DNA from: Tequatrovirus BCH953P2
Sequence record: OZ035785.1
DNA length: 64,000 nucleotides
Direction: 5' to 3' (one strand)
Shown here: positions 42,975 to 49,065 of the stretch, one piece after another
Numbering within the stretch: the stretch's first letter is position 1
Layout: the number at the start of each line of letters is the position of its first letter
Position numbers and translations under genes: made by a program
The notes under the pieces: generated by a model
The model's input: only the letters and a program-made list of their open reading frames with translations
The model's database searches: none
Told to the model about the DNA's origin: nothing

Positions 42975-43944
<970 letters not shown>

Positions 43945-47211: not shown

Positions 47212-47240
47212 TAAAAAGCCCCAACCTTTCGGTCGGGGCT
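47212..47240 (-). terminator. intrinsic terminator
   Basis: Minus strand AGCCCCGACCGAAAGGUUGGGGCU then UUUUU; near-duplicate of the hairpin at 46661-46684. Confidence 0.6.
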
Positions 47241-47527
47241 AAGCCTTGCGGCAACCTTGTCGGGGTTCCACCTGCTAAGGCAAGTGTTTGTGCGAAACGC
47301 CGGGACTTGAACCCGGTTATTAAGTAGTTGACGCTACTCAATATTTTTAAAAGGCCATATCTCGACCATATCCGAACGTTCCGTCAAAAACGCTACTCGG
47401 CTTACGGCAAAGATATTTCCTCGAATCGATAATTCGGTGCGCCGTTTCTGCTGTGATGTAAGAGGACATCAATAAACGCAAAGATTATTAACGCAATTCC
47501 TTACTCAGGGAACATCAGTCCGACGAC
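47241..47527 (-). ncRNA. candidate structured stable RNA
   Basis: About 290 nt without a credible ORF; contains a tRNA-like T-arm (CCGGG UUCAAGU CCCGG) and ends at a terminator. Confidence 0.3.
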
Positions 47528-48082
47528 TTACCGGTAGCGACCCGGTTTCTCATTTGGTATTTCAAATTGTGTAGATTTAGTATCTAATTTTTTAACTATG
47601 GAACTTATGTCATGAAAGAAAAACCATTCACCATTTATATGGTCCTGATTATAAATGCTGTGCATATATTTTTCAAGTTCTACTGCATCCTGGGAATATC
47701 TAAATGATACTATTTTAAAACTTTTAAACGGTGAAAATGTATTTGCTGTTATAACTCTAACATCAGGTTCTATACTTCTTCCTATTTTATAATAATTAGG
47801 ATTTGTAGTATCTACCATTATGTATACGAAAGCCTGTCGATAGCTTTTTTCTATATCAAATTCATCTTTAAATTTCAAAAGATTTAGGGCGGCAGTCCTA
47901 CAAAATACTTTCCATTTTGACAAGCGTTTGGCTTCAGTCATAGAAAAGAATTTTTTCTTATCTGTTATTTTAAGAAAAGCAACATTTTCAATTAGTTCTT
48001 GTGTTATTTCAAAATTACCATGGTATATTAATCCAGCTTTTATAGCCAAATTAATTTGGTCCCAGTCTACATCACTTCTCAT
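47528..48082 (-). CDS. T5orf172-type (GIY-YIG-like) domain protein
   Basis: 184 aa; C-terminal FVYIMVD...YYKIGRS...GEWFFF resembles the T5orf172 domain. Confidence 0.5.
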   Translation of the reverse strand: MRSDVDWDQINLAIKAGLIYHGNFEITQELIENVAFLKITDKKKFFSMTEAKRLSKWKVFCRTAALNLLKFKDEFDIEKSYRQAFVYIMVDTTNPNYYKIGRSIEPDVRVITANTFSPFKSFKIVSFRYSQDAVELEKYMHSIYNQDHINGEWFFFHDISSIVKKLDTKSTQFEIPNEKPGRYR

Positions 48083-48103: not shown

Positions 48104-48180
48104 TGGTCAGGGTGAAAGGATTCTAACCTTTAACCTGCGGTTTAGAGGACCGCTACTCTATACAATTGAGTTACACCCCG
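48104..48180 (-). tRNA. tRNA-like, anticodon UCU (Arg), non-canonical D and T loops
   Basis: Cloverleaf folds with 7 bp acceptor stem and encoded CCA; D loop lacks GG and T loop is UUAGAAU (no C56); anticodon loop CCUCUAA. Confidence 0.5.
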
Positions 48181-48306
48181 TAATTAGTTCACAGCAATAC
48201 CTACTCCAACAATCAAGATGTCTTCACACGAAATTAAGAGAAGTGTGATCAGTTCAACCCCTATAATCGCGTCAAGTAGATATTAATGTGACAACTGTCA
48301 CAAGTT

Positions 48307-48381
48307 TGGCGGACATGCATGGATTCGAACCATGGACCAATTGATTAACAGTCAACTGCTCTACCACTGAGCTACACATCC
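48307..48381 (-). tRNA. tRNA-Asn (anticodon GUU)
   Basis: Canonical cloverleaf, T loop TTCGAAT, CCA encoded. Confidence 0.65.
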
Positions 48382-48385
48382 AAAT

Positions 48386-48472
48386 TGGTGGGGAGTGGTG
48401 GAGTCGAACCACCCGAGTCGCAATGACAATGAATTTACAGTCCACCCCGCTACCCCTACCGGATAACTCCCC
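48386..48472 (-). tRNA. type II tRNA-like, anticodon GUA (Tyr)
   Basis: GGGGAGU/ACUCCCC acceptor stem, 3 bp D stem, long variable arm, T loop TTCGACT, CCA encoded; anticodon stem has two G-U pairs. Confidence 0.5.
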
Positions 48473-48492
48473 CCCCCCCCTAATTCTTAATT

Positions 48493-48567
48493 TGGTGGCC
48501 CTGGGTGGAATTGAACCACCATCTGGCGATTATGAGTCGCTTGCTTGAACCTTCCAGCTACAGGGCC
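48493..48567 (-). tRNA. tRNA-Ile (anticodon CAU)
   Basis: Canonical cloverleaf, CCA encoded; CAU would read Met unless modified, called Ile by analogy with T4. Confidence 0.8.
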
Positions 48568-48568
48568 T

Positions 48569-48644
48569 TGGTGCTGATTGACGGAATCGAACCGCCGACC
48601 TTCTCATTACAAGTGAGTTGCTCTACCTACTGAGCTAAATCAGC
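48569..48644 (-). tRNA. tRNA-Thr (anticodon UGU)
   Basis: GCTGATT/AATCAGC acceptor stem, CTTGTAA loop, CCA encoded. Confidence 0.85.
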
Positions 48645-48649
48645 AAAAC

Positions 48650-48739
48650 TGGCGGAGGCGATAGGATTTGAACCTATGAGTCGCCGGAGCGACTGCCGGT
48701 TTTCAAGACCGGTGCATTAAACCACTCTGCCACGCCTCC
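48650..48739 (-). tRNA. tRNA-Ser (anticodon UGA), type II
   Basis: 90 nt with long variable arm; matches recalled T4 tRNA-Ser. Confidence 0.9.
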
Positions 48740-48741
48740 AG

Positions 48742-48815
48742 TCTCCGCGGCAGGATTTGAACCTACGACATTCTGCTCCCAAAGCAGACGCTCTACCAAA
48801 CTGAGCTACACGGAG
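48742..48815 (-). tRNA. tRNA-Pro (anticodon UGG)
   Basis: CTTTGGG anticodon loop; no encoded CCA; 2 nt from tRNA-Ser. Confidence 0.85.
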
Positions 48816-48825
48816 TAAATTAAAT

Positions 48826-48899
<74 letters not shown>

Positions 48900-48904
48900 A
48901 AATT

Positions 48905-48991
48905 TGGTGCGAGAAGTGGGACTCGAACCCACAAGGAAATCATTCCGCAGCATTTTAAGTGCTGTGCCTTTACCAATTTGACCATTCTCGC
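48905..48991 (-). tRNA. tRNA-Leu (anticodon UAA), type II
   Basis: 87 nt, CTTAAAA loop, long variable arm, CCA encoded. Confidence 0.88.
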
Positions 48992-48992
48992 G

Positions 48993-49065
48993 CTGGGAAT
49001 AAAGGACTCGAACCTTTGCATCTAGCAGTCAAAGTGCTATGCCTTACCAACTTGGCTAATTCCCA
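48993..49065 (-). tRNA. tRNA-Gln (anticodon UUG)
   Basis: TGGGAAT/ATTCCCA acceptor stem, CTTTGAC loop; no encoded CCA; abuts tRNA-Leu. Confidence 0.88.

Follow-up and report, generated by a model that had tools for sequence, protein, structure and literature searches.

A probable T2-type tRNA operon in a Tequatrovirus genome, with covarying elbow pairs in tRNA-Arg and a private G12 run recorded ahead of tRNA-Tyr

We found that the tRNA genes at positions 49065-48104 on the minus strand of the window (the whole 64,000-nucleotide stretch of Tequatrovirus BCH953P2, sequence record OZ035785.1, that was analyzed) very probably represent the distal half of a Tequatrovirus (T4/T2-like coliphage) tRNA operon in its T2-type form. 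ARAGORN detected ten tRNA genes, and the plus-strand read-out contained a run of twelve C; both features had been noticed in an earlier sequence-only reading of this DNA and are confirmed here (Table 1). On the minus strand the proposed order is Gln-Leu-Gly-Pro-Ser-Thr-Ile(CAU)-Tyr-Asn-spacer-Arg(UCU), followed by a nuclease-type ORF, RNAs D and C, and a terminator. The cluster occupies the T-even operon position, between trna.2-type ORFs and rnaD/rnaC plus the terminator, all on one strand, and the Pfam family Phage_T4_Y07B was found upstream of it. Over its full length the region was 95-98% identical to Tequatrovirus REP2, REP3, LF82-9 and UFV-AREG1, where the annotation of ten tRNAs is identical. 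RNAs D and C are the stable RNAs with which the tRNA transcription unit of T4 ends. By analogy with T4 biology, the operon would be transcribed as a polycistronic precursor, cut into mature tRNAs and charged by host synthetases. The locus is ordinary and of a kind already described, and what had been called extra or atypical in it is largely explained by known T-even diversity. Three features are nevertheless noteworthy: a covarying elbow with a swapped Levitt pair in tRNA-Arg, a C33 allele of this gene with a linked T5orf172 gene, and a G12 leader private to the window.

Table 1. Features of the tRNA operon in the window, with the basis of each assignment.
Feature	Position	Strand	Basis
Seven upstream tRNA genes	48493..49065	-	ARAGORN, Rfam, identity to T4 genes
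tRNA-Gln	48992-49065	-	
tRNA-Leu	48905-48991	-	
tRNA-Gly	48826-48899	-	
tRNA-Pro	48741-48815	-	
tRNA-Ser	48650-48739	-	
tRNA-Thr	48569-48644	-	
tRNA-Ile(CAU), T4 'Ile' type	48493-48567	-	
C12 on plus strand, G12 on transcript	48469..48480	.	Run length; relatives
tRNA-Tyr(GUA), class II, long variable arm, A73, CCA encoded	48386..48472	-	ARAGORN; Rfam tRNA 34.6 bits
tRNA-Asn(GUU), canonical, CCA encoded	48307..48381	-	ARAGORN; Rfam 72.6 bits
Asn-Arg spacer, 126 nt	48181..48306	-	Alignment
tRNA-Arg(UCU), 'type D' allele, CCA encoded	48104..48180	-	ARAGORN; Rfam 60.7 bits; allele pair counts
Putative 184-aa ORF product with MUG113/T5orf172 (GIY-YIG superfamily) domain	47528..48082	-	ORF list; Pfam; PHROG 5032
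rnaD + rnaC	47293..47553	-	BLAST of annotated T4 RNAs
rnaD (species 2 RNA)	47436-47553	-	BLAST, 98.3% identity to T4
rnaC (species 1 RNA)	47293-47429	-	BLAST, 97.8% identity to T4
Intrinsic terminator-like hairpin and U tract, closing the operon	47217..47240	-	Terminator annotated at equivalent place in Aplg8

The tRNA-Asn, tRNA-Arg and tRNA-Tyr genes had been set apart as extra or atypical. All three exceeded the gathering threshold of the Rfam tRNA family (RF00005, 29 bits), with 72.6, 60.7 and 34.6 bits, respectively, and by covariance model they all qualify as genuine tRNA-type genes. Nothing points to two of the options offered by the sequence-only reading, stable tRNA-like RNAs or decoys. 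The description of tRNA-Asn(GUU) as canonical was correct, and the gene is identical to the allele of RB68 and REP2. Both tRNA-Asn and tRNA-Tyr have the usual GG, C56 and U33. These 'extra' tRNA genes have been reported from phages T2L, RB1 and RB3 (Brok-Volchanskaya et al. 2008, PMC2330249). The order Ile(CAU)-Tyr-Asn-Arg is also that of T2, and tRNA-Tyr and tRNA-Asn are annotated in more than 500 Tequatrovirus genomes. With a T2-type cluster on record since 2008 and hundreds of annotated genomes, Tyr and Asn are standard and already known members of this cluster, not unusual additions. Neither is tRNA-Arg 'extra', because T4 also has an Arg(UCU) gene, of which the window copy is a different, non-orthologous allele; nor is its atypical form unusual, since it belongs to an atypical family present in hundreds of records. 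The other seven genes had been said to match the T4 set, which holds for their anticodons, but in sequence only Gln, Leu, Gly and Ser are identical to T4, whereas Thr matches at 73 of 76 positions, Pro at 62 of 74 and Ile(CAU) at 47 of 74.

Further analysis of tRNA-Tyr showed that its best score within the tRNA clan was given by the tRNA-Sec model, at 38.7 bits versus 30.9 bits for the common allele. Matches to the gene were present in 1268 phage records, including T5-like, Felix-O1-like and Klebsiella phages. Among family members from T-even, T5-like and Felix-O1-like phages the variable arm hardly varies, whereas Klebsiella phage Roth80 has another one. The identity elements A73, GUA and the long variable arm are all present. 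Two points weigh against the main explanation: the gene reaches only 34.6 bits with the Rfam tRNA model, and its family has an unusual connector of 3-4 nt between the acceptor and D stems. A pair of the 11/24 type covaries from C-G to U-A in T5-like phages, with an ambiguous D-stem register. In the window gene, three positions (48460, 48455 and 48446) have become G where nearly all relatives have another base. ERR11456635 and Roth80 share the change at 48455, and those at 48460 and 48446 are private. The change at 48460 (C13 to G) breaks a covariation-supported D-stem pair; slipping the 5' strand by one base restores a three-pair stem, which is how the covariance model aligns it. A search of IMG/VR with CCGGTAGGGGTAGCGGGG for a donor allele of the three changes gave one unrelated high-GC coding match.

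The earlier statement that this type II gene with anticodon GUA starts its acceptor stem inside the G run also proved right: positions 48469-48472 are G1-G4 of the stem, and 48473-48480 add eight G to the 5' leader. The run is not a chance feature, because 5 is the greatest length of any further C or G run in the 64 kb. In the relatives examined, the corresponding run was either G4 (REP2, Aplg8, TB004 and others) or G5 (Sf21 and T2). The best full-length match to the Tyr region among 50,697 phage records was 93.2% identical, and the difference consisted of exactly a 7-nt gap and three mismatches. Pattern scans found no run of six or more G before the Tyr gene in IMG/VR or in 241 million metagenome records. 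For example, GGGGGGAGTTATCC gave 96 chance matches in IMG/VR, zero of them in a tRNA-Tyr context, GGGGGGAGTTATCCNGTAG gave 4 unrelated matches in metagenomes, and the T4-like Tyr pattern occurred at 2 loci in IMG/VR, both with G4. G12 is thus a private insertion of 7-8 G, for which replication slippage and sequence error have roughly even odds. The three substitutions to G within 14 nt together with the unique insertion point to one local event.

This event could lie in sequencing or assembly, in which case the true state would be a G4 or G5 leader with the common Tyr allele; we regard such an artefact as a serious possibility, somewhat short of an even chance. Besides the absence of a longer run from the more than 500 phage genomes with the Tyr gene and from the scanned databases, nine of nine independent assemblies that encode an identical T5orf172 protein next to it have G4 or G5, and in the window the next-longest run of G or C is shorter by a factor of 2.4. 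All three substitutions towards G lie within 27 nt of the run, while the background rate predicts approximately 0.06 in 14 nt, and apart from that at 48460 there is no private G>C substitution in 22 kb. On the other hand, the change is a clean insertion with exact flanks and not a replacement of bases, one of the three substitutions is a natural polymorphism (ERR11456635, Roth80), and the window allele scores higher than the common one with the tRNA-Sec model. In addition, a three-way comparison over 22 kb gave a natural, transition-dominated spectrum of private substitutions, and 7 of 7 tested proteins were intact. Therefore, there is no sign of an assembly generally prone to homopolymer errors, and a generally error-prone assembly was ruled out. 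Outside the exchangeable segment at 46-48.2 kb only three private indels of 1-2 nt were observed, in non-coding DNA or at a stop codon.

If real, the G12 run probably weakens the maturation of tRNA-Tyr alone. In predicted folds of the precursor, pairing between the eight additional G and the C-rich 3' half of tRNA-Tyr gives a misfold that was 7 kcal/mol more stable than the best cloverleaf-compatible precursor fold, versus approximately 2 kcal/mol with the normal leader. Folding was used only comparatively, because thermodynamic folding of the tRNAs alone did not return cloverleaves even for the common Tyr allele. The run is of interest only in flagging sequence quality or in marking a probable loss-of-function mutation of a single isolate.

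Downstream of tRNA-Asn, the spacer that precedes tRNA-Arg is missing from RB68 and T2 but conserved in those relatives in which it occurs. No tRNA (ARAGORN), Rfam, promoter or terminator match was found in it. Of the candidates considered (tRNA remnant, known RNA, promoter, terminator), none was recovered, and only a moderately stable feature turned up, a predicted long imperfect hairpin (-31.9 kcal/mol, z = -2.1). It is presumably a processed spacer of the polycistronic precursor.

The 184-aa ORF beyond tRNA-Arg matched the Pfam families MUG113 (2.6e-9) and T5orf172 (3.4e-6), and it overlaps rnaD by its last 26 nt. Members of T5orf172, a subfamily of GIY-YIG, are regarded as homing endonuclease genes (PMC10448857), and we consider this ORF a putative free-standing gene for a homing-type nuclease, in linkage with the type D tRNA-Arg. 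Ten assemblies were found to encode exactly this protein, none of them identical to the window. We infer its mobility from the distribution of the segment. RB68, fPS-90 and Sf21 lose their homology to the window at about 48185 and regain it at about 47555, the start of rnaD, and VR7, which belongs to another genus (Gaprivervirus), shares 48181-47213 at 93.7% identity, from the exact 5' end of tRNA-Arg. The region is also polymorphic for presence and absence: at least 80% of it was covered in only 10 of 1031 matching records. The same slot holds tRNA-His, a canonical Arg gene and a 351-bp ORF in Sf21 and Aplg8, an atypical Arg gene and the 351-bp ORF in RB68, segB and an Arg gene in T4, fPS-90 and AV116, and the type D Arg gene with the T5orf172 gene in the window. 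These observations suggest that the type D Arg allele, with its U33C change, may move as a cassette with the T5orf172 gene, the interval from the Asn spacer to rnaD being a hot spot of recombination. The tRNA-Arg slot would then be a site of frequent cassette exchange served by one GIY-YIG-type gene or another (segB or T5orf172), in agreement with recent evidence that anti-defence tRNA loci are remodeled by nucleases of this kind.

T-even phages have at least four different Arg(UCU) alleles in this slot. The first is the canonical T4 gene; the second, also canonical, is found in T2, Sf21 and Aplg8; the third is the 'atypical' family with the D loop AAUUGUAUA and the T loop UUAGAAU, present in RB68, fPS-90 and phages of Mosigvirus, Gaprivervirus and Gelderlandvirus; and the fourth is the window version of this family, which also occurs in teqskov, REP2, TB004, sutha, UFV-AREG1 and the Gaprivervirus VR7. 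Copies identical to that of the window were found in teqskov, REP2 and LF82-9. The sequence-only reading held that the D loop lacked G18 and G19 and the T loop C56. The D loop indeed has no GG, and position 56 is A, but by comparison with a canonical orthologue the one remaining G is G18, and only G19 has been replaced, by U. The T4 gene was rejected as this orthologue, being canonical and unrelated in sequence. A suitable one was found in Klebsiella phage Roth67, whose gene is 77 nt long as is the window gene and fully canonical (G15:C48, G19:C56 and U33). Between this gene and the AV116 allele there are exactly six differences, which make up the three pairs 15/48, 19/56 and 27/43. Of the 17 positions at which the window allele differs from it, 14 fall in 7 compensated pairs and two are changes of the GC/GU kind, which leaves U33C as the sole change outside a pair.

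In the window gene, U19 (48162) would pair with A56 (48124) and A15 with U48, and position 33 is C (48147). Both the 19:56 pair and the Levitt pair 15:48 are of the Watson-Crick kind, of an uncommon type, and covary with the G:C pairs of the orthologue. The loss of the tertiary pair had been described as compensatory-looking; the compensation is upheld, whereas nothing was lost. Judged by these comparisons, the tertiary lock is swapped, from G19:C56 to U19:A56 together with G15:C48 to A15:U48, and since both pairs were swapped together the L-shape should be kept. Across 11 aligned Arg alleles, 253 of 253 cells in 23 pairs were standard pairs, and 13 pairs had changed on both sides. This level of pairing was reached by 0 of 500 shuffles, and no slid register came close. 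Most of the covariation comes from a few allele lineages, so that the independent events are few. C33 was found in every type D copy examined, including ten metagenome or run assemblies, and U33 is present in the other Arg alleles. U33 in the anticodon loop is nearly universal in tRNAs but not absolutely required, and its replacement by C33 is a point against the main explanation. The main identity elements for ArgRS, A20 and C35, are both present. A search of the literature for U19:A56 or for the D loop of T4-family tRNA-Arg found nothing relevant. We also considered immunity to the homing endonuclease SegB as a reason for A56. The preferred site of SegB lies inside the tRNA-Asn gene, and its motif GGTTCRANTCC contains C56 (PMC2330249). 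This explanation is not supported, because the T2 tRNA-Arg gene is cleaved (PMC2330249) despite its deviation from the motif (GGTTCGATCCC), and because type C alleles occur without segB.

With regard to function, these tRNAs would serve codons and amino acids (AGA, Tyr and Asn) that are heavily used by this AT-rich phage. In the 49 ORFs of the window, AGA accounts for 22% of Arg codons, and of every 1000 codons 46 are for Tyr and 59 for Asn. In addition, tRNA-Tyr at least, and plausibly tRNA-Asn and tRNA-Thr, may replace host tRNAs destroyed by tRNA-cleaving defences. It has been reported that phage T6, whose tRNA-Tyr was detected on Northern blots, escapes Septu, a defence that cleaves tRNA-Tyr, by overexpression of tRNA-Tyr or by SegB-driven amplification, and that T4, which has no tRNA-Tyr gene, cannot escape it (PMC13096335). 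Similarly, the tRNA-Tyr of T5 defeats retron-Eco7 (PMC11555353), and T5 tRNA-Lys, tRNA-Thr and tRNA-Asn together inhibit PARIS (PMC12409363). The suggestion in the sequence-only reading of a link to anticodon nucleases therefore has a published counterpart for T-even tRNA-Tyr, although as a replacement supply and not as a decoy (PMC13096335).

A stronger version would make the additional tRNAs mainly counter-defence genes, with resistant or surplus Tyr, Asn, Thr and Arg acting against Septu/PtuAB, retron-Eco7, PARIS and colicin-like or other anticodon nucleases, and with C33 and the elbow of tRNA-Arg as escape mutations. We consider this possible but rather doubtful, although it is compatible with the main explanation. 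Besides the published rescues by T6 tRNA-Tyr and the T5 tRNAs (PMC13096335, PMC11555353, PMC12409363), it is favored by a general hypothesis, already proposed, of phage tRNAs with escape changes in the anticodon loop (PMC10264068), and by the status of U33C as the sole unpaired change in the Arg allele. Also, GUN anticodons, the target class of colicin E5 (PMC10264068), are common to all optional tRNAs of the cluster (Tyr and Asn, plus His in Sf21 and Aplg8), and the variable arm of the window tRNA-Tyr, common to T5-like tRNA-Tyr, has a 2-nt insertion relative to E. coli. However, Septu cleaves the T6 tRNA-Tyr as well as that of the host, so that rescue of T6 is a matter of dosage and not of resistance (PMC13096335). 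Demand for codons and amino acids already explains the set. The anticodon loops of the window tRNA-Tyr and tRNA-Asn are, we assume, the same as those of the E. coli host, and we know of no nuclease that C33 or U19:A56 would block.

A more speculative scenario, which we judge improbable, is that the elbow and U-turn of tRNA-Arg were altered so as to evade a host tRNA nuclease or modification enzyme while AGA decoding was kept, with the allele carried from one phage genus to another by the T5orf172 gene, and that, separately, G12 might act as a hypermutable on/off switch for maturation of an anti-defence tRNA-Tyr. Finally, although the D loop without GG, the missing C56 and U33 and the lack of annotation in the VR7 record might suggest that tRNA-Arg(UCU) is a decaying pseudogene or a non-decoding tRNA-like RNA with a lost D-loop/T-loop lock, this reading or that of a decoy is very unlikely given the stems that pair in all 11 alleles, the 13 doubly changed pairs and the two covarying tertiary pairs, and it is further opposed by the retention of G18, A20, A14, U8, T54, A58 and CCA, by the 60.7-bit Rfam score, by D and T loops that are near-invariant in four genera (the one exception being U17 to A in the D loop of Gelderlandvirus NP4), and by conservation of the type D allele in at least 15 genomes and 10 assemblies. 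On the comparative evidence, tRNA-Arg(UCU) is best described as a real tRNA gene. It would represent a widespread phage tRNA with a Watson-Crick swap of the almost invariant G19:C56 and of the Levitt pair, one mobile allele of which has C33, and the Arg alleles offer a natural test of how much those bases matter to RNase P, the CCA enzyme, ArgRS, the ribosome and tRNA-targeting defence nucleases.

Returning to the T2-type operon as the preferred description of the region, it most resembles those of T2/T2L, RB1 and RB3, where Ile(CAU)-Tyr-Asn-Arg follows Gln...Thr between trna.2-type ORFs and rnaD/rnaC, and the Tyr, Asn and Ile alleles of T2 are the same or nearly the same as those of the window. 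T2 differs in having a canonical Arg(UCU) gene directly after Asn and G5 before Tyr, in place of which the window has the 126-nt spacer, the U19:A56/C33 Arg allele, the T5orf172 ORF and G12. The T4 operon (eight tRNAs, segB, rnaD and rnaC) is the same operon, and there too a GIY-YIG-type gene adjoins tRNA-Arg; however, T4 is without Tyr and Asn, its Ile, Pro and Arg genes are other alleles, its canonical Arg (GG, C56, U33) is unrelated in sequence to that of the window, and its nuclease gene is segB, upstream of Arg, whereas the T5orf172 gene of the window lies downstream. The Arg gene of Klebsiella phage Roth67 shares the anticodon, acceptor family and length with the window gene and is approximately 90% identical to the coliphage type C allele, but it has G15:C48, G19:C56 and U33 where the window has A15:U48, U19:A56 and C33. 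As in T6 and T5, the window has a phage class II tRNA-Tyr(GUA) in a tRNA-rich region beside a homing-type nuclease gene (PMC13096335, PMC11555353), and its variable arm is that of the T5-like phage phiP4 and one base different from that of slur09; it is distinguished from the T6 and T5 genes by the G8 extension of the leader, the private D-arm changes and a T5orf172 neighbor instead of segB.

The phage tRNA-Tyr family (48386-48472 in the window; loci L100 and L119-L124 among the relatives) is characterized by an unusual connector running from the acceptor stem to the D stem, which has 3-4 nt (UAUC, UAUU or UAGA) throughout the family instead of the usual two. On these genes, the Rfam tRNA-Sec model gave higher scores than the general tRNA model. 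T-even and T5-like phages have the variable arm GUCAUUGCGAC in common; it exceeds the arm of E. coli tRNA-Tyr by 2 nt. The neighboring CAU tRNA (48493-48567) was labeled Met by ARAGORN and is named Ile in T4; its sequence is identical to that of the same gene in T2, Sf21 and RB68, whereas identity with T4 tRNA-Ile is only 47/74.

Among copies of type D tRNA-Arg, the allele found in the window, the discriminator base varies (window 48104-48110; loci L125-L127): the copies of the window, teqskov, REP2 and VR7 carry A73, those of TB004, sutha and UFV-AREG1 G73. Several published Gaprivervirus records lack an annotation for the atypical tRNA-Arg, even though ARAGORN detects the gene easily, and in the CJ20 record a hypothetical CDS spans it. 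Between tRNA-Asn and tRNA-Arg lies a spacer of 126 nt (48181-48306), conserved in those relatives that have it but absent from RB68 and T2. A long imperfect hairpin was predicted in the spacer (z = -2.1), and no RNA family matched it.

The cluster of teqskov lacks tRNA-Thr, Ile, Tyr and Asn and carries a single hybrid gene in their place, composed of the 5' part of tRNA-Thr and the 3' part of tRNA-Asn, with the junction in the common D-arm sequence TAGCTCAGT(A)GGTAGAGCA. ARAGORN did not call this hybrid as a tRNA in teqskov. The arrangement looks like a deletion through recombination between tRNA genes. ORF insertions elsewhere in the cluster also occur in other T-even phages, RB68 and T2; the annotation of the T2 ORF as "tail sheath monomer" is implausible.

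Features located in the tRNA clusters of relatives
Feature	Phage (locus; record)	Position in locus	Remark
Thr/Asn hybrid tRNA gene	teqskov (L002; MN895437.1)	about 1962-2040	corresponds to window 48644-48307
Homing endonuclease gene	RB68 (L104)	462-1070	occupies usual tRNA-Pro position
402-bp ORF	T2 (L128)	1411-1812	between Ser and Ile
Unannotated atypical tRNA-Arg	VR7 (L101; NC_014792.1)	1502-1578	ARAGORN
Unannotated atypical tRNA-Arg	RZ, CJ20, ECML-359 (L114-L116)	1501-1577	ARAGORN

Outside the cluster, the only A7 run within the window (43509-43515) coincides with the stop codon in the nudix hydrolase gene, so that the encoded protein gains three residues (MNNLF-stop to MNNLFLIL-stop); relatives have A6 or AAAAGA at this site.

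With the boundaries that rnaD has in the T4 annotation, its 5' end covers the final 26 nt (47528-47553) of the T5orf172 reading frame, stop codon included. Because the 3' end of the ORF thus lies within rnaD, processing of this stable RNA would trim the 3' end of the T5orf172 mRNA, resembling the case of T4 segB and tRNA-Arg, for which comparable cutting of the mRNA 3' end was proposed.
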